A stretch of DNA of 64,000 nucleotides, from assembly GCA_019747905.1 (NCBI GenBank), contig JAIEQG010000007.1, forward strand, positions 17,189 through 81,188, in the 5' to 3' direction. Positions 36,703 through 48,430 of the stretch are shown here, piece after piece. The DNA comes from Burkholderiales bacterium. GTDB taxonomy: Bacteria; Pseudomonadota; Gammaproteobacteria; Burkholderiales; Ga0077523. The position numbers were made by a program, and so were the translations under genes. Every line of letters starts with the position of its first letter. The stretch's first letter is position 1. The notes below the pieces were generated by a model, which saw only the letters and a program-made list of their open reading frames with translations, searched no databases and was not told where the DNA came from.

Positions 36703-37773
36703 ATGATTCAGCGGGGAATCGCCGTCCTTGCCGCCACACTTGCGTGGGTTGCGCTGTGCATGACGCCGGCGCACGCCGCGAAGTACGTCATGGTCATCAG
36801 CCACATGGGCCCGGAGGACTGGACCAACAACGAGATGCATCCGGCCATGAAGCATTTCGAGTCCATGGTCGAGGCGCGCACCGGCGGCGACATCGACGTC
36901 CAGGTCTTCGGCAACGGCCAGCTCGGCTCCGAAGTGGAAACGGCGAAACAGGCCCAGGCCGGCAAGACGGTGCAGGCGACGCTGATCTCGTCCGGCGCCA
37001 TGTCGTCGTTCTTCCCCGCCTACCAGATCATCACCACGCCTTTCCTGTTTCCCAACTACCACGTGGCACGTGCCTACCTCGACGGTGAATGGCACGCGAA
37101 CTTCATGCGTGGCGCGCTGAAGGCGAGCGGCCTGCGCTATCTCGGCACGCTGGACGACGGCGGCGGCTTCGTCGCCTTCACCAACAACAAGCGGCTCATC
37201 AAGACGGTCGATGACCTGAAGGGCCTCAAGATCCGGGTGGAGGAGAATCCCGCCCACGTGGCGACCATGAAGGCGCTGGGCGCCTCCGCCACGCCGCTGC
37301 CGTGGGGCGAGGTGCTCACCGCGCTCAGTACCGGGCTCGCCGACGGTCAGTTCAATGCGCCCGGCATCAGCCTCGCGTTCAAGCTCTGGGAAGTGAACCA
37401 GTACACGACCTGGAGCGGCCACGTCTACAACACCATCTCGTGGATGATGAGCGACAAGTGGTTCCAGTCGCTGCCGCCGGAACACCGGCAGGTGATCATC
37501 GAGGCGGCGCGCGAAGCCACCGTGGTATCCCACGGCATCGCCGTCCTCGCGGCAGCCACCGGCTGGGATACCTCCTGCAAGAAGTTCAAGCAGTGCTGGA
37601 TCCTCACCAAGACCGAGCGCGACCGCATGGCCGCGGTCGCGCGGCCCGCGTGGAAGCAGTGGGTCACCAAGGACTTCGGCATCGACGTGAAGCTGGTGGA
37701 CCAGCTCTGGGCCGAAGTCGCCCGCATCGAAAAGGAAACGAGCGCGCTCGACGCGAAGCGCTACGGCCAGTAG
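36703..37773 (+). CDS. TRAP transporter substrate-binding protein (DctP family)
   Basis: 356 aa, signal peptide, GGAGGGGA RBS, followed by small and large TRAP permeases. Confidence 0.9.
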   Translation: MIQRGIAVLAATLAWVALCMTPAHAAKYVMVISHMGPEDWTNNEMHPAMKHFESMVEARTGGDIDVQVFGNGQLGSEVETAKQAQAGKTVQATLISSGAMSSFFPAYQIITTPFLFPNYHVARAYLDGEWHANFMRGALKASGLRYLGTLDDGGGFVAFTNNKRLIKTVDDLKGLKIRVEENPAHVATMKALGASATPLPWGEVLTALSTGLADGQFNAPGISLAFKLWEVNQYTTWSGHVYNTISWMMSDKWFQSLPPEHRQVIIEAAREATVVSHGIAVLAAATGWDTSCKKFKQCWILTKTERDRMAAVARPAWKQWVTKDFGIDVKLVDQLWAEVARIEKETSALDAKRYGQ

Positions 37774-37777
37774 ACCC

Positions 37778-38281
37778 ATGGCGGCCGTAGCGTTCTTGCG
37801 GCGGATGAGCGATGCGCTGAATCGCGCCGTCATCGCCTTCTGCGTCGCGTGCGTGATCGCGATGCTCGCGATCTCGTTCATCGGCTTCTTCTACATGGTC
37901 GGCACCGGTGAGGCCCTGAGCTGGACCTACTCGCTGGCACGCCTGTTCATTCCCTGGATCGGCATGCTGTCGATCACGGTGGCATTCAAGGGCGGCGAGC
38001 ACGTCACCATGAACCTGCTGCTTGGCCTGGTACCGCACGCATTCATCCGGGTGCTGCAATGGGCAAGCTTCGGCTTGATCGCCCTGTTCGCCTTGTTGCT
38101 CATCTGGTTCGGATGGGACTTCTTCCTCGGATCCAACCAGTACTACATGGTGTCCGACCAGATCCGCGTGCATGGTCGCTGGGTCGCGGCTTGCGTTCCG
38201 GCGACGGGGGCGATCCTGTTCGTGCACCTTGCGAGCGGATTGCAGCTTCTGGAGCCACCCCCGCAGGCGGAGGATATCTGA
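37778..38281 (+). CDS. TRAP transporter small permease (DctQ family)
   Basis: 167 aa with 4 hydrophobic segments. The stop overlaps the next start (TGATG). Confidence 0.85.
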   Translation: MAAVAFLRRMSDALNRAVIAFCVACVIAMLAISFIGFFYMVGTGEALSWTYSLARLFIPWIGMLSITVAFKGGEHVTMNLLLGLVPHAFIRVLQWASFGLIALFALLLIWFGWDFFLGSNQYYMVSDQIRVHGRWVAACVPATGAILFVHLASGLQLLEPPPQAEDI

Positions 38282-39558
38282 TGGCCGCCGCCCTGGTGAT
38301 CTTCGTCGTGGTGCTGCTGATCGGGGCACCGATCGCCCTGGTGATGCTGTTCTCCGGGCTGGCCGGGGCGGTGTCCATCGGCGGCCCTGAGTTCCTCGAG
38401 GTGGTCGCCGACCGCATGTTCTCGGGCGTGGGCAGCTTCCTGCTGATGGCGATCCCGTATTTCATCTTCACCGCCGAGCTGATGAACCACGCCGGCCTCA
38501 CGCAGCGACTGATCGATTTCAACAACGCGCTGCTCGGACGCGTGCGCGGCGCCCTGAGCCACGTCAACATCCTGAGCAGCCTGCTGTTCGCGGGGCTCAC
38601 CGGCGCCGCCGTCACCGACGCCGTTGCGATCGGCAAACTGCTGATCCCGGCCATGAAGAAGGAAGGCTACTCGGCAGCGTATGCCGCGGCCGTGACCGCG
38701 TGCGCCTCCGTGATGGGGCCGATCATCCCGCCCAGCATCGTGATGGTGGTGTACGCCACCCTCCTCTACAACGTGTCGGTGATCTCGCTGTTCGTGGGCG
38801 GCATCATTCCCGGCCTGATGCTCGCGGGAGCGTTGCTGCTGGTAAGCGGCTGGCTCGCGTGGCGGCGCGGTTTCCCGGTACACGGTAAATCGAGCTTCGG
38901 GCTGGCGCTGCGCCGGTTTCTGCCGACCGTCCCTGCGCTGCTCGTCCCCGTGATCATCCTGGGCGGCATCCTCGGGGGCTGGACCACCGTGACGGAGGCG
39001 TCGGCCTTCGCCGCCATCTACGCCATCGCCGTCGGAGCGCTCCTCTATCGGACTCTCACCGTCCGCAATGTGCTCGCGGCACTCGTCACGACGGTCCGCC
39101 TGTCCGGAGTCGTCTTCTTTCTCCTGGCCACTTCCACCGTCCTCGGCTGGTTCGTCACCCGCTCGGGCATCACCCGCGAGGCCGCGGAACTCATCGCCGG
39201 CTTCAGCACCAATCCGATGGTGCAGATCCTGATGGTCAACCTGCTGCTGCTCGTGATCGGCACCATGGTCGACGTGCTGCCGGCGCTCGTGATCGTGGCG
39301 CCGGTGCTGGCCCCGGCCATGACGCAACTCGGGTTCGACCCGCTGCATTTCGCGATGGTGATGATCATCACGCTCAACGTCGGCAACATCACGCCGCCGG
39401 TGGGCATGTCGCTGATGACCACGGCGCGCATCGCCGGCGTCAGTTACGAAAAGGCGATCGTCGCCTCGCTGCCCTTCTACTTGAGCTTCATCGCGGTGAT
39501 CGCGATCGTGTCGCTGTGGCCCGCCACCGTGCTGTGGCTGCCGGGGCTGCTCCGCTGA
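38281..39558 (+). CDS. TRAP transporter large permease (DctM family)
   Basis: Start at ATG 38281 ('MAAALVIFVVVLLIGAPIALVMLFSG'). 425 aa, polytopic. 'FIFTAELMNHAGLTQRLIDF' is typical of DctM. Confidence 0.92.
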   Translation: MAAALVIFVVVLLIGAPIALVMLFSGLAGAVSIGGPEFLEVVADRMFSGVGSFLLMAIPYFIFTAELMNHAGLTQRLIDFNNALLGRVRGALSHVNILSSLLFAGLTGAAVTDAVAIGKLLIPAMKKEGYSAAYAAAVTACASVMGPIIPPSIVMVVYATLLYNVSVISLFVGGIIPGLMLAGALLLVSGWLAWRRGFPVHGKSSFGLALRRFLPTVPALLVPVIILGGILGGWTTVTEASAFAAIYAIAVGALLYRTLTVRNVLAALVTTVRLSGVVFFLLATSTVLGWFVTRSGITREAAELIAGFSTNPMVQILMVNLLLLVIGTMVDVLPALVIVAPVLAPAMTQLGFDPLHFAMVMIITLNVGNITPPVGMSLMTTARIAGVSYEKAIVASLPFYLSFIAVIAIVSLWPATVLWLPGLLR

Positions 39559-39610: not shown

Positions 39611-40801
39611 TCAAGGATCCCGCGCGCAGCGAAACCCGATGTCCTCGGCGCGCAGTTCCGGGGCGCCATACGAACGCCGCGCCGAATTCATGCGCTCCGC
39701 CGGCTCGAAGCGGCCGCCGCCGCGAATCACTTTCGACGTACCCGAAGCGGGCCCTTGCGGATTGCGGCGCTCGCCCACCGGGAAACCCTCCGCGTACCAA
39801 TCCGCCGTCCACTCGGCGACGTTGCCGGCCATGTCGTGCGCGCCGTAGGGACTGCGTCCCGCAGGGTGGCTGCCCACCTTGTCGAGCCCGCCGGAATAGG
39901 CCTCGGGGGATGCGTTCTGGAAGTTCAGCCGGTCCGCCATCGGCCGGTCGTTGCCCCACGGAAACCGCCGCTCGTCCGTGCCACGCGCCGCCTTCTCCCA
40001 TTCCGACTCCGTGGGCAATCGTCGCCCTGCCCACTTGCAGTACGCACTGGCGTCGTTCCAGTCCACACCGCCCACGGGCAGCTCATCGCCGCGGGCGAGG
40101 TCCAATGCTTCCCATCCTTCCGGGGGATGAGACGAGCCCGTCGCCGCGAGAAACTTCGCATATCGCCCGGTCGTGACCTCCAGGCCGTCGATGTAGAACG
40201 CGTCGAGGAATACCTCGCGCTTCGGTGACTCCTCGTCGTCGCCCATGACGAAGGTGCCGGCCGGCACCAGCACGAGCGGCGCACCGTCCCTGCCGGTCAG
40301 TTCGGTCGGAGCCTCGCGGGTCGCGAGGGTCCACCACACACCTCCCGCCACGACGAGGGCGACGACGACTCCGACGCCTGCCTTGATCAGCAGCGCACGC
40401 CGGCGTTTCAGATCGATGCGATGCACGGCATCGGCCACCGCGGCAGCGATGTTGCCCGGGGACTCCAGCAGGGTCACCGACTTCACGAACGCCGGCAGAC
40501 GATCGAAGGCCGTCGGGCGCAGCAGCACGGGCAACAGCCTGCCGGAGGCCTGCCGCAGCTTCTTCTCGGCAATCTCGAGCTCGTTCAGCGTGTAGCTGCC
40601 CGGATCGATGGCCTCTTCGCTCACCAGGAAGACGAACAGGTCCGCCTGCTCGATCGCCCGGCGGATGCGGATGTGAAACTCCTCCCCTGCCGGCAGATCC
40701 TCGCGATCGAAGAAGACATCATGGCCCTGGTCGAGCAGGGCACGGTTGATGGCCTCGGCGATCGGGCGATCCTGCGAGGCATAACTCAGGAAGATCTTCA
40801 T
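39611..40801 (-). CDS. TIR domain - single TM helix - FGE-sulfatase (SUMF1-like) domain protein
   Basis: Start at ATG 40801 (ATGA overlap with the upstream gene). TIR: 'KIFLSYASQD...VFFDREDLPAGEEF...DLFVFLVSEEAIDPGSYTLNELEIA'. TM about aa 136-159, preceded by KRRR. FGE domain: 'VGGVDWNDASAYCKWAGRRLPTESEWEKAARG...GNVAEWT...IRGGGRF'. Confidence 0.85.
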   Translation of the reverse strand: MKIFLSYASQDRPIAEAINRALLDQGHDVFFDREDLPAGEEFHIRIRRAIEQADLFVFLVSEEAIDPGSYTLNELEIAEKKLRQASGRLLPVLLRPTAFDRLPAFVKSVTLLESPGNIAAAVADAVHRIDLKRRRALLIKAGVGVVVALVVAGGVWWTLATREAPTELTGRDGAPLVLVPAGTFVMGDDEESPKREVFLDAFYIDGLEVTTGRYAKFLAATGSSHPPEGWEALDLARGDELPVGGVDWNDASAYCKWAGRRLPTESEWEKAARGTDERRFPWGNDRPMADRLNFQNASPEAYSGGLDKVGSHPAGRSPYGAHDMAGNVAEWTADWYAEGFPVGERRNPQGPASGTSKVIRGGGRFEPAERMNSARRSYGAPELRAEDIGFRCARDP

Positions 40802-41241
40802 GCCGCGGGAGCGGCCACCCTCTGCTCCGCGCGCCACGCGCTCAAGGTCCACAGGAAGCTCGCGAAATCCTGCACCGCGAACGCAGCCGCGAGCTGCCAC
40901 GGCAGGATGCCGGTCAACCAGAGCACCAGCATCGCCGGCGGAACCAGCGGCCGGTCGAGCAGGGAGGCGAACACGAAGCCCTGCGCGTTGAGCCGGCCGG
41001 CCGCCACGTAGAGCATGCCCAGTCCGCCGACGAGCAGGCCGACGAGGCGGAAGTAGTTCTCAGCCTGCTCGACCATCTCCGGCAGGTGCAGCAGCTTCAC
41101 CGCGAGCTGCGGGGCGAACACGATGCCCACGCTCTCCGCGAGGATCAGCCAGCCGAACACTTCGACGGTCTTCGCGGAACGGCCCTGACCCTCCGCGGCG
41201 AACAAACGACGGAACATCTCCCCGAAGGACGGTGCATTCAT
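40798..41241 (-). CDS. Small integral membrane protein (147 aa), unknown family
   Basis: Start at ATG 41241 (ATGA overlap with the methyltransferase stop). About 4 hydrophobic segments. Its stop overlaps the TIR gene start. Confidence 0.6.
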   Translation of the reverse strand: MNAPSFGEMFRRLFAAEGQGRSAKTVEVFGWLILAESVGIVFAPQLAVKLLHLPEMVEQAENYFRLVGLLVGGLGMLYVAAGRLNAQGFVFASLLDRPLVPPAMLVLWLTGILPWQLAAAFAVQDFASFLWTLSAWRAEQRVAAPAA

Positions 41242-42062
41242 GTTCGTCTCCGTGCGATGTAACTGTAGAAATTGCAGGCCCCGAAGAAGACGCCGCGATC
41301 CGACCGGCGCAGCACTTCCTCCGCCCACGCCACCGCCTCGTCCTCCGTGGCGGCCCCGGCTTTCGGCAGCAGCTTCATGAAGGACTGGATTCCCGGTTTC
41401 CAGAAATCGGCGGCACCCACTTCGGCCAGCACATACGACCAGGACGAAACCAGGTCCACTTTCGCATCTCGCAGCCTCTGCGGCATCTCGCGCATCACCC
41501 GCGGATTGGTCACGATGGCCGCGATGATGGCCTCGTCCATGGCACGGCCGCGCGCGGGATCGTCGGTGCCGAAGGTGATCGAGGCATAGTCGCCGTCGAA
41601 GATGCCGATCATGCCGCCGGGCTTGACCACGCGGGCCAGCTCTTCGATCACGGCCTGCGGGTCGTCCACGTGGCTGATCAGCGTGTGCGCGATCACCGCG
41701 TCGAACGCGGCGTCCGGAAGCTTGAGGCTCTGCGAGTCGCCGGCCCGGAAATCCACCTTCGCAGCCAGCCCCTCGGACCGGGCAAGCCGTTGCGCGGCAT
41801 GGATCAGCGACGGGCTGAGATCGATGCCGGTGACGTGCCCCTTGAACGCGGGTCGCCGCGCGACTGTTCGGGCTACCACGCCCGTACCGCAACCGACGTC
41901 GAGCACGGTGCCCGCCCCGTCGATGCCCATGCCGTCGAGGTACTCGCCCATCATGTGCAGGAACTTCGGATGGCGCCCGCGCGCCTCGAGACGCGCTTCG
42001 AGCACGCCCAGAGTGTCGCCGTCCAGTTGATCGGTGATGCGATAGACGTCGACGGCAGCCAT
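41238..42062 (-). CDS. Class I SAM-dependent methyltransferase
   Basis: Start at ATG 42062. Motif I 'VLDVGCGTGVVAR'; post-I 'VTGIDLS'; 'VVKPGGMIGIFD'. Confidence 0.85.
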   Translation of the reverse strand: MAAVDVYRITDQLDGDTLGVLEARLEARGRHPKFLHMMGEYLDGMGIDGAGTVLDVGCGTGVVARTVARRPAFKGHVTGIDLSPSLIHAAQRLARSEGLAAKVDFRAGDSQSLKLPDAAFDAVIAHTLISHVDDPQAVIEELARVVKPGGMIGIFDGDYASITFGTDDPARGRAMDEAIIAAIVTNPRVMREMPQRLRDAKVDLVSSWSYVLAEVGAADFWKPGIQSFMKLLPKAGAATEDEAVAWAEEVLRRSDRGVFFGACNFYSYIARRRT

Positions 42063-42091
42063 GCGTTTCCTCTCGAAATCGAAACAGCGGA

Positions 42092-42556
42092 CTATCTGGG
42101 CGTGACCGCCGCGATGCACTCCACTTCCACGCGCGCACCCAGCGCCAGACCATTGGCGCCGAGCGCACTGCGTGCCGGAAACGGAGGCGCGAAGAACGTG
42201 CGGTAGACCTCGTTGAACGCCGCCCACTCGCTGATGTCGGCCAGCATCACGGTGCACTTCACCACGTCGCGCATCGTATGGCCGTTGGCCTCGAGCGAAG
42301 CCTTGATGTTCTCCATGGTCTGTCGGGCTTCTTCCTTCATGCCTCCGGGCACCAGCTTCATCGTGCCCGGTGCGATGCCCACCTGGCCGGAGAGGTACAC
42401 GGTGTTGCCCACGCGGACCGCCTCGGAGAACGGCAGCGTGGTGGGCAGCACCCTGCCCGAGTTGTAGTACTCGATCGGCGCGGAGTCCGCAGCGAATACG
42501 GAACCGGCAACACAAAGGCAGGCGCTGGTCAGCGCGATCGTGCAGAGCAGTCTCAT
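42092..42556 (-). CDS. RidA/YjgF-family protein with N-terminal signal peptide
   Basis: 154 aa. 'MRLLCTIALTSACLCVAGSVFA' looks like a cleavable signal. The RidA core is 'VYLSGQVG...NIKASLEANGHTMRDVVKCTVML...ARSALGANGLALGARVEVE'. GAGGAG RBS. Confidence 0.88.
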   Translation of the reverse strand: MRLLCTIALTSACLCVAGSVFAADSAPIEYYNSGRVLPTTLPFSEAVRVGNTVYLSGQVGIAPGTMKLVPGGMKEEARQTMENIKASLEANGHTMRDVVKCTVMLADISEWAAFNEVYRTFFAPPFPARSALGANGLALGARVEVECIAAVTPR

Positions 42557-42585
42557 CGAATCGTCTCCTCGGACGGTGAATCGCC

Positions 42586-43773
42586 TCAGGCTTGCGTGGC
42601 AAACGGCCCGAAGTCGGCCAGGCGCACGTGGCGCTGCGCGTAGGCCGCGCCCACGCGCTGGATGTTGGGGATGTGCTTGATCGAATCCATCTCCTGCATG
42701 GTCGCCGGATCGATGTCGCCGAGACCCAGCGCATTGAGACCGGCGTGGGTCACATCCGGGTCATAGCGCAGGTAGGTGAACAGTTTCGGTCCGGTCCAGT
42801 TGGCCCTGCCATCGACGGTCCCGACCATCGCCCCGTACTCGCGGTCGATCTCGGCCCCGAAGCGGCAATCGCCGAGCATCCTGCAGGTCATGTCCCAGCC
42901 GGCCGAGGCGGCGTTCATCAAGGCGCCGGGAATGCTCGTCGCATGATGGAGGATATTCATGTCGTCGGCTTCGAGCTTCGGGCGGGCCTTCGGTGCACTG
43001 CCGGTCCCGACTGAGACGATCAACAGCTGGTCCGTACCAGTACGCCAGTTCAGCCGATACGGCGCCGCGGTCGCCATCTGGAACGCCAGGTAGGCGGGGT
43101 TGTTGTAGGTGGTGACGCCACCGTCCACGAAGATGAACGAATACTCCTTCGGCGAACCCTCCCCGAAGGTCACCACTTCGGGCGGAAAGAACGTGGGCGC
43201 GGCGGTACTGGCGCGCACGAGCTGCCACAGCGGCAGGTCCAGGTTGCAGTCGCCTCGAGCGCGCTGGTTGTACTTCGCGGCCGGGTTGTTCCACACCGGC
43301 CAGGGCGAATCGGTCGTGTGGTTGCGCATGACCATCATCAACAAGGTCCTCAGCCGATCGCTGCCCAGCGGCGCATTCGGATACCTGGCGCTCGGCTGGT
43401 GTCCGAGGGCACGATCCAGTTCGGCGCGCAGCTTCTTCGCCAGCGGTTCGTCATTGTAGGTGTAGCGCAGGCGCTTGAACAGCGACGCCTTGTCGAACAT
43501 GTCGCGGCCGCTGCCCACGTAGAACTCGCGCATCTGATCCATGGACATGCCCGACGCGATGCACGCGGCGATGATCGCGCCGGTGCTGGTGCCGCACACA
43601 AAATCGAACCAGTCGGCCAGCACCAGGTCCGGCTTGCCGTGCTGTTTGCGCAGGTCGGCCTCGAGCTTCGCCAGGACCTCGGTGCTCATCAAGCCCAGGA
43701 TCCCGCCGCCGTCGCAGGCCAGGATCTTCTTGGGACCGTTCGGGGCCAGCTTCTCGGCCAGAGATCTCGTCAT
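42586..43773 (-). CDS. Patatin-like phospholipase
   Basis: 395 aa. Oxyanion 'CDGGGILG', nucleophile elbow 'GTSTG', catalytic Asp 'FVDGGV'. GAGGAG RBS. 34 nt downstream of the preceding gene. Confidence 0.9.
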   Translation of the reverse strand: MTRSLAEKLAPNGPKKILACDGGGILGLMSTEVLAKLEADLRKQHGKPDLVLADWFDFVCGTSTGAIIAACIASGMSMDQMREFYVGSGRDMFDKASLFKRLRYTYNDEPLAKKLRAELDRALGHQPSARYPNAPLGSDRLRTLLMMVMRNHTTDSPWPVWNNPAAKYNQRARGDCNLDLPLWQLVRASTAAPTFFPPEVVTFGEGSPKEYSFIFVDGGVTTYNNPAYLAFQMATAAPYRLNWRTGTDQLLIVSVGTGSAPKARPKLEADDMNILHHATSIPGALMNAASAGWDMTCRMLGDCRFGAEIDREYGAMVGTVDGRANWTGPKLFTYLRYDPDVTHAGLNALGLGDIDPATMQEMDSIKHIPNIQRVGAAYAQRHVRLADFGPFATQA

Positions 43774-43807
43774 CGGGGGCTCCTCGTCGTGGCCGCGGAC
43801 GCCGCGG

Positions 43808-45763
43808 CTACCAAAGCTTGCGCGTGTCGAGCCAGGTCACCTGGCCGGTGCGGCGTTTCACTTCGTTGTACATGTGCGCCGTGCCGCCCGGGCCGTCGGA
43901 ACCGCCGCCGTCCCACAGGCTCACGAAGCGCACCTTGTCGATGCCGTGCGCGAGCGCCGTGTAGAGCAGCCACAGGTTACAGCGTTCGAAGGCATTGGCG
44001 TCCTTCGGCAAGGGACCCAGATCGTCCGGCATGATGCGCAGCGCGTCCTGCAGTTTCGCCTTCACGGCGAAATAGCGTTGCCGCCAGGACTCGCCGTCCG
44101 CTGACGGCAGCACTGACCGTTCGATGAACTCCGGTTCCTCGAGGGGCATCAGCAACTGCACGCGCACGCCGCGCTCCTGGCACGCTTCGCAAAAGAGCAG
44201 GTCGCCGCCTGCGGCGCCCTGAGTCAGCGCGAGATCGCCCGCCCCCGCCCCGAGCTGGTCGAGCGCCTTCGCCATGGCCGCGGTCGCGACGGGCACCTTG
44301 CCCGCGGGGAAACGGGGCTTGGGCCGATCGGGCGCATCCACCATGTGCCCGGAGAACAGGAAGACCTGGCGCGGCACGAATGGCGGCGTGCTGCGGGCGA
44401 TCTCGCGATCGATGATGTCGAGTACGGCAGCCGTTTCATCCGGGCGGAACTCGAGATCGCGCAGCAGCGTCAGGGTCTGGCGGGTGGAGTCGAGCGCGAA
44501 CCAGTCCTTGTTGGCGGCGGCCACCGCGGTCTTGTATTCACGCAGCGCGGATTCCTTGGGATTCACCAGCAGGAACAGCTCGGCGAGGCTCGCCCGGGCC
44601 CAGTAATCCTTCGGTTTGCGCTCCTGCGCGGTGAGGCAGGCCCAGAGCACACCGCCTTGCAGATTGGTGAGCGCGGTCGCATCCACCGGCTCGCCCAGGT
44701 GCTCCTGCACCATGCGCAGCACCAGCGCGTTGACACCGGAGTAGTAGTGCGATGGGTCACGGATGAACGCGGCGTGGTAGGGATCGATCGCCTCGCGCAG
44801 CGCCGCGTCTTCTGCTGCGGCCGCCGCACGCATCTGCGCGGTCGAAGCACCCGGCTGCGCCCAGCGCTGGATCCACGAGTCCTTGTTGACGCGGCCGGCG
44901 AGCGCCCAGCACTCCGGATCCTCCGGATGGTCCTCGGTGAGGCGCCGCACCCACTCCAGCGCCTCCTCGGACCGCCCCAGGCGTCCGAGACAGATCGCCT
45001 TCTTCTCGCGCACCGCCTTGCGGGTCGGATCCACTTCCAGCACCGCGTCGAACTGCTCGAGCGCAAATTCGAACTGCTTGAGGCGCAGCAGCGTGGTGCC
45101 GGCCATGGTCTTGCCTTCGAGCCACAGTGCCCGCGTCGGCGTCTCCTCGGCCAGCACCAGGATGTCGCCGGGCCGCCCTTTCTGTCGCGCCACCTCCATG
45201 CGGCTTGCCCAACGTTCCTGCGCGTCGCTGAATTCATTGTGCTGCTCCAGCAGCAGCGTGCGCCAATCGGGTTCCTGCAAGTGCGGCAGCAACTGGTAGA
45301 CCGGACTCACCTTCCGTCCCGACCACGCCTCGAGCGTGGCCTTGGCCATCTTCGTGATGGCGCCACGGTCCGCTTCCGAGGTCGCAGGATCGGGGACCCC
45401 GTCCTTCAACCGGTAGCGCAGCTTGCGATCGGTGTAGATGTCGAAGGGTTGCGTGGCGCGCGGGCCCTGCACCAGCAACACCCCGCGCGCACGCAGCGCG
45501 TGGCGCACGCCCAACTCGTACCAGACATTCGGATTGTCCAGCGTGAGATCCGCCACCACGAGATCCGCGACCAGCAGTTCCTGGAACATGTCCATGCGGA
45601 TGTCGCCCGCGCGCTGTTCCTCGTCGGCACGGAACACGTCGAGACCAGCCGCCTCCAGGGCCGGCTTCAGCAGTTCCTCGTAGATGCGGTTGAAGTCGAT
45701 CGGCTTGCCGTCGGCGTCGGGCTTGGTGCCGAACGGCATGGCGAGGAAAGCGTGGGGTTTCAT
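43808..45763 (-). CDS. Large three-module protein: N-terminal Rossmann/TIR-like module (DUF4071/ASK-type), TPR-like helical region, C-terminal LOG/SLOG-like nucleotide-binding module
   Basis: Start taken at ATG 45763 ('MKPHAFLAMPFGTK'); the track ORF starts at a TTG 8 codons upstream. The N-terminus reads 'AMPFG...IDFNRIYEELLKPA...VVADLTLDNPNVWYELGVRHA'. The middle is helical repeats with 'GRVNKDSW'. The C-terminal ~185 aa carry 'VFLFSGH', 'TQGAAGGDLLFCEA' and 'GPGGTAHMYNE' (LOG-type PGGxGTxxE). Confidence 0.8.
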   Translation of the reverse strand: MKPHAFLAMPFGTKPDADGKPIDFNRIYEELLKPALEAAGLDVFRADEEQRAGDIRMDMFQELLVADLVVADLTLDNPNVWYELGVRHALRARGVLLVQGPRATQPFDIYTDRKLRYRLKDGVPDPATSEADRGAITKMAKATLEAWSGRKVSPVYQLLPHLQEPDWRTLLLEQHNEFSDAQERWASRMEVARQKGRPGDILVLAEETPTRALWLEGKTMAGTTLLRLKQFEFALEQFDAVLEVDPTRKAVREKKAICLGRLGRSEEALEWVRRLTEDHPEDPECWALAGRVNKDSWIQRWAQPGASTAQMRAAAAAEDAALREAIDPYHAAFIRDPSHYYSGVNALVLRMVQEHLGEPVDATALTNLQGGVLWACLTAQERKPKDYWARASLAELFLLVNPKESALREYKTAVAAANKDWFALDSTRQTLTLLRDLEFRPDETAAVLDIIDREIARSTPPFVPRQVFLFSGHMVDAPDRPKPRFPAGKVPVATAAMAKALDQLGAGAGDLALTQGAAGGDLLFCEACQERGVRVQLLMPLEEPEFIERSVLPSADGESWRQRYFAVKAKLQDALRIMPDDLGPLPKDANAFERCNLWLLYTALAHGIDKVRFVSLWDGGGSDGPGGTAHMYNEVKRRTGQVTWLDTRKLW

Positions 45764-45822
45764 GTCAATGGCGCCGGGCCGCCCCAAGCCAATTGACGCG
45801 CCCCCATGGGGCTGAGCCCGGA

Positions 45823-45852
45823 CACGTCGCAGTCCCTGCGGACTGCGACGTG
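45823..45852. repeat. Hairpin family C copy (13-bp stem) in the 5' leader of the large three-module gene
   Basis: 'cacgtcgcagtcc ctgc ggactgcgacgtg'. The core is the reverse complement of that at 2207-2234. A second hairpin, ggtcgggcc-tgca-ggcccgacc, follows at 45864-45885. Confidence 0.5.
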
Positions 45853-45977
45853 CCTGGCGAAGCGGTCGGGCCTGCAGGCCCGACCGTGGACCAGCGACCG
45901 AAGGGAGCGTGGGGGCCGTATCATTTTCGGTACGTTACCGGAGAAACGAAGTCCGACGCATACACGAACGAACGTCA

Positions 45978-46111
45978 GCCCCCATCCCAACCTTCCCCCA
46001 ACGAAGTTGGGGGAAGGAGCCGTACATCCCCTCCCCCGGCTTCGCCGGGGGAGGGCGGAGGGTGGGGGCAAGCGAAGCGCCGGCTGCGCCGGGGGAGGGT
46101 TGGGGTGGGGG
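45978..46111 (+). repeat. REP family A, about 1.5 units
   Basis: 'gcccccatcccaa ccttccccca-acgaagt-tgggggaagg ... ctcccccgg-cttc-gccgggggag ggcggagggtgggggc ... gccgggggagggttggggtgggggc'. Confidence 0.8.
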
Positions 46112-46206
46112 CCTTCCGAACGTCGTCCTCCCAGCTAAGCTGCAGCCCGAAAGAGGGCCCACGATCGGCCTTGCAGATGCAGTTCAAAGCTGCCGATTCG
46201 AGCCCA

Positions 46207-46665: not shown

Positions 46666-47391
46666 TCACCGCGCCGTCACTGATCGACTGTTTTCCGATG
46701 AGCGCCCGCGCGCGACTCCGCCCACGATCATCGCACCAACCAGCAGCATGACCCAGGTCTCAGGTTCGGGAACGGGGGCCGGCGCGAGATTGCCGGCGCC
46801 GTATCCCGCCACGAACGGTGCGAGGTCACCCGAGTTCGTACCGGTGCCGGCGGGAATGTCCCAGCTGACTGCCGCTCGCCGGCCGCGAGCTCCGTCATCG
46901 CCGATCGGCCACACGCTCTGGGTGAGCTTCTTGAACACGACGGCACCGTGGACCGTGCTGTCGTCGAACGAGAGCGCGGTGAAGAACGCATCGGTCATGA
47001 CGAGTTGCGCGAACGTGACCGGCCCTGCACCACCATCCTGCACCAGTTCCACCGTCACGACCGGGATGGCATCGCCCTGCAGGAGGTAGGCGTACATCGC
47101 CGGAACGCTCGCATCGAACGCCTGGACCCAGGTGAGCTCGCCCGGCTGCGGCTTGCCGACCGACGCTCCGCCACCCTTGGTCCAGCTGCTCTCCGCAGTC
47201 ACGCGCCAGGCCACGGCATCGAGTTCGATCCAGTTTTCGTACCCTTTCACCTGGCTCTCGCCGTTCACGGCCGGTTCGCCACCGGTCATGCGCATGAACG
47301 CCTGGTCCGCTCGCGCAGGTGCTGCGCCCTCGACGATGCAGAGGGCGAGCGCCAACAGGAGCGATCGATGGAACCACCGTGGCGCGTTCAT
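46666..47391 (-). CDS. Hcp-fold (T6SS tube protein-like) protein with Sec signal peptide and PEP-CTERM anchor, paralog 1
   Basis: Start at ATG 47391 (ATGA overlap with paralog 2). 'NGESQVKGYENWIELDAVAWRVTAESSWTKGGGASVGKPQPGELTWVQAFDASVPAMY' follows the Hcp pattern (GES..H...I.v.s.sWG......GGG..GK....d......D.S.P.l). The C-terminus is 'VPEPETWVMLLVGAMIVGGVARGRS'. Confidence 0.75.
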   Translation of the reverse strand: MNAPRWFHRSLLLALALCIVEGAAPARADQAFMRMTGGEPAVNGESQVKGYENWIELDAVAWRVTAESSWTKGGGASVGKPQPGELTWVQAFDASVPAMYAYLLQGDAIPVVTVELVQDGGAGPVTFAQLVMTDAFFTALSFDDSTVHGAVVFKKLTQSVWPIGDDGARGRRAAVSWDIPAGTGTNSGDLAPFVAGYGAGNLAPAPVPEPETWVMLLVGAMIVGGVARGRSSENSRSVTAR

Positions 47392-48146
47392 GACAGAGCC
47401 CGGCTGGCCGGCACCCGGTTGCGGCGCAAGGCGAAGCCGACCAGGACCAGTCCGGACACCACCATGACCCAGGTCTCGGGCTCGGGAACGGGTGCCAGGT
47501 TCGGTGCCGACAACGCAGCGAGCGCGGCACCCTTGCCTTCGAGATTGCCGGGTCCGTATCCCGCCACGAACGCAGCCAGGGCACCGTTGCTTCCGACCGT
47601 CCCCGCCGGGATATCCCAGACCACGTTGATCGGTTTGTCGCGCCCGCCGCTCGCGTCCTGCGGCCAGTAGGTCATCGAGATCTTCTTGAACACACCGGAC
47701 CCCGCCACCGAACTGCCGTTTAACGCGAGCTCGGTGAAGAAGAGGTCCTCGATGTTGAGCTGCAGGTACGTGGCCTCCCCCGCGCCGTTGCTCCGGGTGT
47801 ATTCGACCACCGCGTTCGGCACGGAGAGCCCCTTCAGCATGTACGAATACATTGCGGGAACACTGGAATCGAAACTCTGGATCCAGGAGATCGCACCCGG
47901 ATTGGGCTTGCCTACGGATGCGCCGCCGCCCTTGGTCCAGCTGCTGTCGGCCGTCACTCCCCACGAGACCGAATCGATGTCGATCCAGTTTTCGTAACCC
48001 TCGGTGGTGCTCTCGCCGACGATGCTGGTCGAACCGCCGGTGAAACGCAGGTAGTAGTCGTCCGCATGCGCAGGAATTGCGCACGCAGAAGCGATGAACG
48101 CGAATACGGCAAAGGCCGTGCCGTTGACAGTCGATGATGGCCACAT
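47388..48146 (-). CDS. Hcp-fold protein with Sec signal peptide and PEP-CTERM anchor, paralog 2
   Basis: Start at ATG 48146 (AGGAG 7 nt upstream). 'VGESTTEGYENWIDIDSVSWGVTADSSWTKGGGASVGKPNPGAISWIQSFDSSVPAMY'. C-terminus 'VPEPETWVMVVSGLVLVGFALRRNR'. Confidence 0.75.
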   Translation of the reverse strand: MWPSSTVNGTAFAVFAFIASACAIPAHADDYYLRFTGGSTSIVGESTTEGYENWIDIDSVSWGVTADSSWTKGGGASVGKPNPGAISWIQSFDSSVPAMYSYMLKGLSVPNAVVEYTRSNGAGEATYLQLNIEDLFFTELALNGSSVAGSGVFKKISMTYWPQDASGGRDKPINVVWDIPAGTVGSNGALAAFVAGYGPGNLEGKGAALAALSAPNLAPVPEPETWVMVVSGLVLVGFALRRNRVPASRALS

Positions 48147-48430
48147 GATGTTTCTCCTGGTTGACTCCGATGAGTGAGCGACACCGGGAAACGGCGGAGA
48201 TCGGGCCTGCACCGAGTCGACGGCTGATGCGCTCGGGAATGGCGGTGGCGGAATGACGATGGAATCCACCGGCCGCACGCCTGCGACGATACGCGCTCCC
48301 GGCGGCAGCGAGAACCACCGCGAGCGCGCGCCGCGTTACCTTACGGCGGCGGCCGACGGGGCCGGCTCAGCCCCGCAGGAAGGCTGGCCCCTTGTGCAAA
48401 GGGCGGCGGGGGCCCGTCCGGGCCCTGACC

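Follow-up and report, generated by a model that had tools for sequence, protein, structure and literature searches.

Type I Thoeris consists of the TIR protein ThsB and the SIR2-SLOG protein ThsA, and in it a cADPR isomer made by the TIR protein is sensed by the SLOG domain, which switches on the effector. The "sensor" TPR known as TPR-S is common to the ThsI effectors of another Thoeris type and to the animal ASK kinases. TPR-S systems (PF20308) were reportedly predicted computationally by Burroughs and Aravind in J Bacteriol in 2020; the TPR scaffold is said to have been predicted to recognize NAD+-derived signals in combination with TIR, DrHyd or SLOG domains plus variable effectors, and the animal ASK signalosome reportedly adopted it at a later stage. 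In type VIII Thoeris a TIR protein acts with ThsI, a "CMP hydrolase and TPR" effector that is activated by canonical cADPR and whose TPR is of the type predicted by Aravind and colleagues; the TIR protein is the source of the signal in the systems tested experimentally (10.64898/2025.12.03.692087). In the BcTir/BcTpr system of Bacillus cereus, BcTpr uses its N-terminal glycosidase domain to produce a cADPR isomer and to deplete NAD+, and "Patatin-Tpr" and "YpsA-Tpr" assemblies are listed among 78 operons taken from the Burroughs and Aravind data (10.1101/2023.05.26.542521).

The six-gene block and its setting

The locus considered here is a block of six co-directional, tightly packed minus-strand ORFs at 39611-45763 of the window, by which we mean the whole 64,000-nucleotide stretch of DNA analyzed. 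As the original prediction had it, the block lies between a TRAP operon and a hairpin and repeat region:

36703-39558, plus strand: TRAP DctP/Q/M operon, flanking the block on one side
39611-40801, minus strand: P6, TIR-TM-FGE-sulfatase-like protein (ORF, 396 aa)
40798-41241, minus strand: P5, small membrane protein (ORF, 147 aa)
41238-42062, minus strand: P4, methyltransferase (ORF, 274 aa)
42092-42556, minus strand: P3, RidA (ORF, 154 aa)
42586-43773, minus strand: P2, patatin-like phospholipase (ORF, 395 aa)
43808-45763, minus strand: P1, hub protein (ORF, 651 aa)
45818-46120: hairpin and direct-repeat block on the opposite flank

From P1 to P6 the genes are separated by 34, 29 and 29 nt and then overlap twice by 4 nt, and no convincing terminator was found between them. 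The domains originally named from the sequence (TPR, patatin, RidA, SAM methyltransferase and TIR-TM-FGE) were all recovered by Pfam and TM prediction. The PADLOC models gave generic domain matches alone with the six proteins and no system-specific match. The window does not stand out as a defence island: its base composition is flat throughout, and TRAP transport and transaldolase genes flank the locus.

The P1-patatin pair

P1 has more than 2200 homologues, with 556 confirmed stretches in species-representative genomes, and NCBI labels its relatives "TRAFs-binding/DUF4071 domain-containing protein". It is composed of three modules, the first of which we tentatively assign to the TIR/DrHyd class:

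45389-45763, minus strand: N-terminal domain, aa 1 to about 125, with Glu83 invariant in the motif NVWYELG
44399-45226, minus strand: TPR-S/MAP3K_TRAF_bd helical repeat array, aa about 180-455 (Pfam, AF2)
43811-44371, minus strand: C-terminal YpsA-like SLOG domain, aa about 465-651 (AF2 and Foldseek)

The central array matches the Pfam families TPR-S (PF20308, aa 231-349, scoring 74 bits where the cutoff is 27.6) and MAP3K_TRAF_bd (PF13281, 33 bits, aa 263-443), and it is all-helical in the AF2 model with pLDDT around 90. A Pfam search of the C-terminal domain gave no match; its AF2 model has a mean pLDDT of 93, and its best Foldseek match in the PDB was YpsA (2nx2, E 1.3e-6, TM 0.56/0.62), followed by the Moco carrier protein, DprA, ShosA and TM1055, with no ThsA structure among the top 50. 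The LOG/SLOG-like character proposed for this terminus is thus confirmed at the level of the modeled structure, and the motifs GH..D, QGAAGGD, ERCN and GGxDGPGGTxH..E are invariant in it.

For the N-terminal domain, several weak but concordant matches suggest membership of the TIR/DrHyd Rossmannoid class. These are with the PADLOC CBASS "Effector TIR" model (E 1.1e-6, aa 25-119), with TIR_2 in 20 and Nuc_deoxyrib_tr in 4 of 34 members of the domain family, and with DNPH1, which aligns over "ADVVVAEVT..GYELG" (E about 0.4); in hhalign, E83 falls on the invariant TIR Glu74 of P6, albeit at a probability of only 6%. The TIR-like N-terminus of the original prediction agrees with these matches but did not gain a confident fold, as pLDDT stays under 50 across aa 49-114, making the AF2 model of the domain unreliable and leaving its fold unconfirmed. 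The family numbers 20,100 cluster representatives, and TPR-S directly follows the domain in 10/10 sampled architectures.

P2 is by its sequence a patatin-like phospholipase and is the predicted effector of the module. It matches Pfam Patatin (7.5e-24) and the PADLOC CBASS phospholipase effector model (7.7e-41), and it scores 105 bits with NCBIfam CBASS_lipase, the CapV equivalog, which is under the 200-bit cutoff. Its catalytic dyad, Ser63 (GTSTG) and Asp217 (DGG), is invariant in 26 orthologues, and its glycine loop, DGGGILG, carries Leu at the canonical Arg position.

A patatin gene adjoins P1 in 25 of 80 related loci from Burkholderiales and Rhodocyclales, an adjacency far beyond chance that recurs in many genera and in both fused and split forms. 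The split form is seen in a distant operon (L086-88), in which the parts of P1 and P2 are separate genes that overlap by 4 nt: a 462-aa core sharing 30% identity with P1, a patatin sharing 48% with P2, a 186-aa SLOG protein matching the P1 C-terminus (hhalign 97.4%, E 1e-11) and a protein of 493 aa, one of whose three copies weakly matches SLATT_3. SLOG domains of the P1 type are also encoded as separate genes, of 186-195 aa, in related operons. The surroundings of P1 vary in other ways. In 26 of the 80 loci its neighbor is a protein roughly 2000 aa long that combines esterase, CHAT and TPR-S domains, and caspases, TIR-STAND-TPR and TIR-TPR proteins are further neighbors of conflict type. On an E. 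coli IncP plasmid, the gene for a TRAFs-binding protein 29% identical to aa 5-298 of P1 is followed by two TIR genes and one annotated DUF4231, an annotation shared with partner genes at two other loci (L089 and L090).

TIR proteins and the remaining genes

TIR genes occur at 15 of the 25 patatin-linked loci versus 10 of the 55 others (Fisher p = 5e-4, uncorrected for phylogeny). Most of those at the patatin-linked loci encode a TIR domain, a TM helix and a variable ectodomain; for instance, a TIR-FGE gene lies 72 nt upstream of P1 at L023, and at L040 a TIR-LCCL gene overlaps the 3′ end of the patatin ORF. A membrane-anchored TIR protein with an extracytoplasmic C-terminal domain is therefore a recurrent operon partner of P1 and patatin in relatives, which bears out the partner type originally put forward.

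Within the window P1-P2 has no TIR gene directly beside it. P6, which starts 1.8 kb downstream of the pair, consists of a TIR domain (aa 1 to about 125, Glu74 invariant; TIR_2, 6.9e-21), one predicted TM helix (aa 137-155) and an FGE-like domain (aa 176-394; FGE-sulfatase, 4e-52). This design matches the TIR partners of P1-patatin operons elsewhere, including the TIR-FGE protein of L023, and P6 is possibly an input component for P1-P2, a candidate of unproven linkage. As for the genes in between, P3 has a Ribonuc_L-PSP domain after a hydrophobic N-terminal leader, P4 is by domain call a class I SAM methyltransferase, and a domain search with P5 gave no match. All three adjoin P1 in near-identical relatives only and are bystanders, outside the proposed P1-P2 functional unit.

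Proposed role, alternatives and known systems

We consider it rather probable that P1 and P2 together form the functional unit, a TPR-S-centred, Thoeris-like nucleotide-signalling conflict module. In such a module, by analogy with type VIII Thoeris, infection or an envelope insult would cause a TIR protein to turn NAD+ into a cADPR-type nucleotide to be bound by the TPR-S and/or SLOG module of P1. Once activated, P1 might hydrolyze NAD+ or nucleotides through its N-domain, which is putatively nucleotide N-glycosidase-like and keeps a glutamate at the catalytic position, or it might produce a secondary signal. P1 would then license the patatin, directly or via the product of the N-domain, and the ensuing degradation of membrane phospholipids would bring about cell death or arrest ahead of phage release. 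Relatives would usually receive the TIR input from a membrane-anchored TIR-TM-ectodomain protein of the same operon; here P6, the only protein of that type in the window, is the sole candidate. Several observations weigh against the module: the purely generic PADLOC matches, the unconfirmed N-domain fold, the want of a TIR gene beside P1-P2 together with the solitary P6 orthologues, the unremarkable genomic setting, the strong conservation of P1, the Leu in the P2 glycine loop and the lack of defence by "SLOG Patatin" candidates.

Could the unit instead be larger, or smaller? The original prediction joined all six genes in one system, with P6 as the signal producer, P1 as the sensor, P2 as the effector and RidA, the methyltransferase and P5 as accessories. 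The tight, co-directional arrangement without a convincing terminator speaks for it, as do an identical six-gene string at another locus (L091), the persistence of P4-P5-P6 close to P1 at L002 and L003, and the fact that TIR-TM proteins, TIR-FGE among them, are real operon partners of P1-patatin elsewhere. Synteny, however, splits the block. The string is interrupted at L002 by a two-component system and a separate TIR-TM-TPR gene, and L003 is without the patatin; of the 49 loci whose flanks extend 3 kb or more in each direction, none has RidA or the methyltransferase near P1 and one has P5 there; and the more distant P6 orthologues (62-74% identity) are solitary in 4/4 sampled contexts, where they adjoin tpiA/secG/nuo, acs, catalase and other such housekeeping genes and neither P1 nor a patatin lies within 6-10 kb. 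Thus, the proposed co-occurrence holds for P1 and the patatin, which alone travel together, and a six-gene system is very improbable. A self-contained, TIR-free pair, in which the TPR array would sense the trigger and either the N-domain or the SLOG domain would signal to the other and so to the patatin, is unlikely to a lesser degree. No TIR gene was seen at 10 of the 25 patatin-linked loci or in the split operon L086-88, some of these flanks being short; BcTpr makes its cADPR isomer by itself, and "Core Tpr alone" is the commonest class of the survey at 29/78 (10.1101/2023.05.26.542521); and SLOG and DrHyd domains are able to generate signals (PMC9503650). Against this stand the significant enrichment of TIR genes at the patatin-type loci and the TIR-derived signal of the tested type VIII systems (10.64898/2025.12.03.692087).

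A further possibility, which we regard as improbable, concerns not the parts but the purpose: P1-P2 may be a physiological stress, regulated-cell-death or lipid-signalling module of floc-forming and filamentous Betaproteobacteria that, like the ASK signalosome, answers to the NAD+/redox or envelope state. P1 is 60-90% identical across two orders with a mean column identity of 78% over its full length, a conservation that appears unusually high for an immune gene. It is chromosomal and free of composition anomaly here, its hosts are largely activated-sludge floc formers (Accumulibacter, Thauera, Zoogloeaceae, Sphaerotilus, Rubrivivax), and its TPR-S is common to ASK kinases. Partners such as CHAT/caspase giants, too, typify conflict systems of "multicellular habit" (Kaur et al. 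2020, PMC7159879). On the other hand, varying flanks and swapped partner effectors at P1 loci are the signature of a mobile conflict system, and relatives reside on conjugative plasmids, some of them beside IS elements; a Rhizobium conjugative plasmid carries the L086-88 parts, and an IS4 transposase gene lies about 3 kb upstream. In addition, the core without SLOG has been proven to act as an anti-phage effector (10.1101/2023.05.26.542521; 10.64898/2025.12.03.692087).

Returning to the preferred P1-P2 module, how does it compare with the described systems? With CBASS it shares a CapV-related patatin, presumably a membrane-degrading suicide effector, whereas the conserved partner of P2 is P1 and not a cyclase. 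We rejected assignment to CBASS because CD-NTase cyclase models found no match among the six gene products scanned and P2 lies below the CapV cutoff; of the two affinities originally proposed, only the Thoeris-like logic is retained. The proposed TIR to SLOG to effector order is that of type I Thoeris and the P1 SLOG domain belongs to the same superfamily, but P1 is without SIR2, its SLOG domain is nearest YpsA, its effector is a separate lipase, and the PADLOC ThsA HMM matched none of the six proteins. The BcTir/BcTpr system likewise has a "core Tpr" with an N-terminal glycosidase domain and TPR; BcTpr differs in being without SLOG and in its partner, a small soluble TIR protein with a substituted catalytic residue, and the patatin and YpsA assemblies of the preprint are entries in a list, not one fused architecture.

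It is type VIII Thoeris of which P1-P2 looks like a candidate variant, P1 being likened to ThsI by description and domain order. In both, an N-terminal domain of nucleotide-glycosidase class precedes a sensor TPR, and both pair with TIR genes and are abundant in Pseudomonadota; P1 differs in its added C-terminal YpsA-like SLOG domain and separate patatin, in having no adjacent TIR gene in the window and in the membrane-anchored, ectodomain-bearing TIR proteins of its relatives. Thoeris effector candidates with the annotation "SLOG Patatin" did not protect E. coli (10.64898/2025.12.03.692087); their architecture differs from that of P1-P2, and E. coli was a heterologous host. To call the locus undescribed was an overstatement, as its TPR-S kind was predicted in 2020, Patatin-Tpr and YpsA-Tpr assemblies were listed in a 2023 preprint and the effector core of type VIII appeared, as ThsI, in a 2025 preprint. 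What the sequences suggest to be new is a candidate arrangement in which a SLOG-fused hub is combined with a patatin and a membrane TIR protein.

Gene content, surroundings and conservation of the locus

The original prediction placed six minus-strand open reading frames in this part of the window, and ORF coordinates together with Pfam matches confirm all six where they were said to be:

43808-45763, minus strand: P1, 651 aa, Pfam TPR-S (PF20308) and MAP3K_TRAF_bd
42586-43773, minus strand: P2, 395 aa, Pfam Patatin
42092-42556, minus strand: P3, 154 aa, Pfam Ribonuc_L-PSP (RidA)
41238-42062, minus strand: P4, 274 aa, Pfam class I SAM methyltransferase
40798-41241, minus strand: P5, 147 aa, small membrane protein without a Pfam match
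39611-40801, minus strand: P6, 396 aa, Pfam TIR_2 and FGE-sulfatase, with one transmembrane (TM) helix between both domains

From P1 to P6 the genes are spaced by 34, 29 and 29 nt and then overlap twice by 4 nt. A plus-strand TRAP DctPQM operon flanks the locus on one side, a hairpin/repeat block on the other. GC content across the region is flat (~0.65-0.69), and no defence-island signature was seen in the window by composition profile. A promoter/terminator scan of the locus returned no promoters, no credible terminator between the P1-P6 genes and two intragenic terminator-like sites, fewer than the shuffled expectation. The hairpin block (45818-46120, intergenic, just upstream of P1) contains near-perfect hairpins with 12-20 nt arms and two 41-nt G-rich direct repeats with 44 nt spacing, and looks REP-like.

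The overlaps of P4 with P5 (41238-41241) and of P5 with P6 (40798-40801), each of 4 nt, suggest that translation of P4 (methyltransferase), P5 (small membrane protein) and P6 (TIR-TM-FGE) is coupled. This trio is kept together at L002 and L091 (L numbers denote related genomic loci) and is not found where P6 orthologues are more distant. P3 has a hydrophobic N-terminal leader, MRLLCTIALTSACLCVAGSVFA, and is therefore probably exported, whereas RidA proteins normally stay in the cytoplasm. Elsewhere in the window, two minus-strand genes (46666-47400 and 47388-48278) encode a tandem pair of secreted proteins, both closed by a PEP-CTERM-like anchor motif (VPEPETWVM...). The 46666-47400 product has an Hcp-like domain (PF05638 T6SS_HCP, 3e-17); it is uncommon for a protein sorted by PEP-CTERM to have an Hcp fold. 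This pair recurs at L091, where both copies have the Hcp domain.

That the six genes work as one system, as originally proposed, is not borne out by synteny, and on that ground we reject a six-gene operon acting as a unit. Neither RidA nor the methyltransferase occurs near P1 in any of 49 loci with full flanks, P5 does so in one, and the complete string recurs in near-identical relatives only (L091). At L002 a two-component system and a further TIR-TM-TPR gene interrupt it, and L003 is without the patatin. Two other elements of the proposal, the linkage of P1 to the patatin and the SLOG-like module of P1, did stand, so that the interpretation as a whole is partly supported.

A patatin gene adjoins P1 in 25 of the 80 best loci compared. 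The strongest argument for linkage is of the Rosetta-stone kind and comes from operons in which the modules of P1 are split between genes. At L086-88 the gene for a 462-aa core protein (N-domain plus TPR-S, 30% identical to P1) stands first in a series with 4-nt overlaps. Next come a 493-aa protein (with a weak SLATT_3 match in one of three copies), a patatin that shares 48% identity with P2 and, last, a protein of 186 aa matching the SLOG domain of P1 (hhalign 97.4%, E 1e-11). On a conjugative plasmid of Rhizobium, genes for SLOG, DUF4231, patatin and DUF4071 proteins occur together, and an IS4 transposase gene lies ~3 kb upstream. At L082, genes for a caspase, a CHAT giant, a separate SLOG protein and a TPR-S protein stand in a row. 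Because core, SLOG and patatin occur both fused and split in this way, we regard them as one functional set.

Patatin is not the only conflict-type neighbour of P1, since caspases, TIR-STAND-TPR proteins, TIR-TPR proteins and TPR-S paralogues recur as well. The commonest alternative is a protein of ~2000 aa combining a DUF7379 esterase, CHAT and TPR-S, which is encoded near P1 in 26 of the 80 best loci. DUF7379 is a DUF676-like serine esterase; such giants, with their CHAT/caspase domain, are found at L006:4059-10004, L082:2057-7996 and 24 other loci, and their stop codon often overlaps the P1 start.

Domains of the P1 hub and its patatin

The center of P1 is its TPR-S domain (aa 231-349), which scores 74.4 bits against a Pfam cutoff of 27.6, accompanied by a MAP3K_TRAF_bd match (33.2 bits, cutoff 24.1). 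Few bacterial proteins are as closely related as P1 to the TPR core of animal ASK kinases. Burroughs and Aravind (J Bacteriol 2020) reportedly predicted that TPR-S is a TPR scaffold sensing NAD+-derived signals, and are said to have held that it was recruited into the ASK signalosome. The features that mark a TPR-S-centred system are found here: TPR-S itself above the gathering score, a nucleotide domain of the TIR, DrHyd or SLOG kind fused or adjacent (in P1, the SLOG fold and the N-domain), and variable effector and TIR genes nearby, with patatin, CHAT giant, caspase, TIR-STAND or TIR-TPR genes within 3 kb of P1 in 37 of the 49 full-flank loci.

With full-length P1, sequence profile searches of the PDB matched TPR proteins alone and a Foldseek search of the model was swamped by TPR and OGT matches, so the C-terminal domain was modelled by itself. 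The last ~190 residues of P1 are predicted as a confident fold (pLDDT 93) whose top PDB match is Bacillus subtilis YpsA (E 1.3e-6, TM 0.56/0.62). Moco carrier protein, DprA, ShosA and TM1055 come next, and these are all SLOG-superfamily proteins. The domain is thus SLOG-like and specifically YpsA-like, in agreement with the LOG/SLOG-like C-terminal module first proposed from the sequence. Pfam run on this piece alone returned no family, only noise with E up to 10, and the domain appears to represent a SLOG clade that has no curated family model.

The P1-type SLOG also exists as a separate gene of 175-195 aa (L082:8001-8588, L081:8001-8582, L094:5031-5558): one lies between a CHAT giant and a TPR-S protein, one is solitary in Thauera butanivorans, and a third, on a Rhizobium plasmid, stands beside very large TIR proteins and an IS110 element. 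At L007:8335-9411 and L014:13256-14356 (both minus strand), a weak SLOG cluster4 (LDcluster4) match and TIR_2 occur in one protein, within ~1.3 kb of P1-patatin pairs.

The N-terminal domain (aa 1 to ~125) is harder to place. It matches the PADLOC CBASS TIR-effector model (1.1e-6), and among 34 family members TIR_2 is hit weakly, below threshold, in 20 (best E 0.006) and nucleoside 2-deoxyribosyltransferase in four. A PDB profile search gave sub-threshold matches to DNPH1 (DrHyd) alone, with an alignment over "ADVVVAEVT...GYELG" (E ~0.4) in which Glu83 of P1, an invariant residue, falls on the Glu of the DNPH1 motif. An hhalign comparison with the P6 TIR family also pairs the two glutamates, at a probability of only 6%. 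Pfam on the isolated piece gave only noise (E up to 10), and AlphaFold confidence for the domain is low in the sole full-length model. These matches are weak but concordant, and they suggest a domain of the TIR/DrHyd class without choosing between TIR and DrHyd. Its family comprises 20,100 cluster representatives (E up to 1e-3). TPR-S follows it directly in ten of ten sampled architectures, and the other fusions among N-domain plus TPR-S proteins are to a ParA-like ATPase, to AAA_35 plus TIR, to a cNMP-binding domain, or to nothing.

The P1 family gave more than 2200 matches, and there are 556 confirmed stretches in species-representative genomes. It is likely overlooked by current annotation of defence systems, because no dedicated model for it exists in PADLOC v2 or NCBIfam and Pfam has none for its N- and C-terminal domains. 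A point of caution is the strong conservation of P1, unusual in an immune gene: the best 80 loci, from Burkholderiales and Rhodocyclales, show 60-92% identity.

P2 is a patatin at 85 bits against a Pfam cutoff of 27.7. The serine of GxSxG and the aspartate of DGG/DGA are both present: GTSTG and DGG are invariant across orthologues, and the Ser63/Asp217 dyad is intact. Its glycine-rich loop reads DGGGILG, with Leu for the usual Arg (codon 26, window 43696-43698). About half of the P1-linked P2 orthologues have the Leu loop, and the remainder and the split-operon patatins have the canonical DGGGIRG. The change may mark a shift of substrate or regulation within a subclade.

TIR partners and a possible route of signaling

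What supplies the signal to P1 and P2? No TIR gene adjoins the pair in the window; P6 is 1.8 kb off, with three unrelated genes between. An iterated TIR profile search of the 80 best loci found TIR genes at 15 of 25 patatin-linked loci vs 10 of the 55 others (Fisher p = 5e-4, the loci not being phylogenetically independent). Most of these neighbours have an N-terminal TIR, one TM helix and a variable C-terminal domain, and many lie inside the P1-patatin operon: a TIR-FGE-sulfatase gene 72 nt upstream of P1 (L023), a TIR-LCCL gene overlapping the 3' end of the patatin ORF (L040), a TIR-TM gene overlapping the patatin stop codon (L048) and a TIR-TM-TPR gene between P1 and patatin (L002).

Could P6 be the corresponding partner here? 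Its orthologues at 60-90% identity are numerous, and all four sampled at 62-74% identity were solitary among housekeeping genes, from which it follows that the P6 family as such is not linked to P1. On the other side, P6 has the same TIR-TM-X design and an invariant TIR glutamate (E74), which make it plausible as a putative input component of this P1-P2 copy, though we consider this less likely than not. Its FGE-sulfatase domain scores 178 bits in Pfam. The catalytic Cys pair of a true FGE is located in the segment before GFRC; the only invariant cysteines of the P6 family are C255 and C392, and none is in that segment. The FGE-like domain is probably non-catalytic and ligand-binding.

Domain identity and linkage are established for P1 and P2, and we propose that they form a Thoeris-type-VIII-like module. 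As to its ligand, the order of events, lipase activation and a role in defence, we infer that the TPR-S and/or SLOG module of P1 would sense a nucleotide made from NAD+ by a TIR protein, that the N-domain would then hydrolyse NAD+ or nucleotides, or produce a second signal, and that the P2 patatin would then be released onto membrane lipid. If so, the cADPR-type Thoeris family would extend to a widespread hub, and one sensor protein would be coupled to interchangeable killers (patatin lipase, caspase/CHAT giants, SLATT proteins). P1, which unites three ligand modules of the TIR-DrHyd-SLOG class or the TPR kind in a single chain, would also be a good system for assigning the writing, reading and erasing of the signal to individual modules.

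Should this model hold, the recurrence of TIR-TM-ectodomain partners would suggest that part of bacterial TIR immunity responds to triggers beyond the cytoplasm. In such an "outside-in" pathway, P1-P2 would be the cytoplasmic half and P6 the envelope receptor in the window, which we consider rather unlikely as it stands. A membrane-anchored protein, its TIR on the cytoplasmic side and a variable domain (FGE-like, LCCL or TPR) outside, would sense an envelope event, for example adsorption or injection by a phage, damage to the cell wall or a signal from non-kin, and would release a nucleotide derived from NAD+. This nucleotide would be read by the DrHyd-TPR-S-SLOG hub, which would fire the patatin lipase or, in sister loci, the caspase/CHAT giant. 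In its topology such a pathway would parallel, in prokaryotes, the Toll-like receptors, with a Thoeris-type effector stage downstream. Literature term searches, a weak negative, found no description of membrane-anchored bacterial TIR receptors in Thoeris-like systems.

Relationship to Thoeris, CBASS and TPR-S systems

Two familiar systems were considered and rejected for the six proteins. Type I Thoeris would call for a ThsA effector with a SIR2 (or TM) domain and a STALD-type SLOG. Pfam finds no SIR2 domain in them, no ThsA model was matched in PADLOC, and the P1 SLOG is nearest to YpsA. For CBASS there is no CD-NTase cyclase among the six by Pfam, PADLOC or NCBIfam, and P2 stays below the cutoff for the CBASS patatin CapV (equivalog NF041079, 105.2 bits against 200).

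Type VIII Thoeris, defined in December 2025 as TIR plus ThsI, a "CMP hydrolase and TPR" effector (10.64898/2025.12.03.692087), is closer. Compared by description, the architecture of P1 matches the ThsI layout of a CMP-hydrolase-class domain with a sensor TPR; NCBIfam gives no Thoeris match for P1. Validated ThsI proteins are IMG 2658136732 and Ga0265295_1000171125. Cells with type VII or VIII Thoeris are reported to be poisoned by cADPR isomers supplied in the medium. ThsI is switched on by canonical cADPR, and its TPR is equated by the authors with Aravind's; in the same study "SLOG Patatin" effectors gave no defence in E. coli (10.64898/2025.12.03.692087). Type VIII has a TIR (ThsB) gene in the operon; the P1-P2 pair of the window is without an adjacent one, and 15 of its 25 patatin-linked relatives have one. 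Residues 5-298 of P1 are 29% identical to a TRAFs-binding protein on an E. coli IncP plasmid, the gene of which adjoins two TIR genes and a DUF4231-annotated gene. On this plasmid (L093; pKMi029_2, NZ_CP147111.1) the TRAFs-binding, two small TIR and DUF4231 genes stand beside a recombinase gene, in a cassette that looks like a combined type VII/VIII Thoeris. The same cassette is widespread on plasmids in other genera, Citrobacter, Klebsiella, Enterobacter and Aeromonas among them.

The locus had originally been put forward as a candidate undescribed system, which proved too strong: the kind is known computationally, and its SLOG-less core experimentally. The BcTir/BcTpr pair of Bacillus cereus is reported to defend against phage, the glycosidase N-domain of BcTpr yielding a cADPR isomer and depleting NAD+, and "Patatin-Tpr" (4) and "YpsA-Tpr" (5) assemblies are among 78 operons in that work (10.1101/2023.05.26.542521). 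The TIR-DrHyd-SLOG clade and the link of YpsA-like SLOG to cADPR sensing have been reviewed (PMC9503650). We conclude that the SLOG-fused hub, with its dedicated patatin and TIR-TM-ectodomain partners, is a variant of TPR-S systems that goes beyond the tested SLOG-less core.
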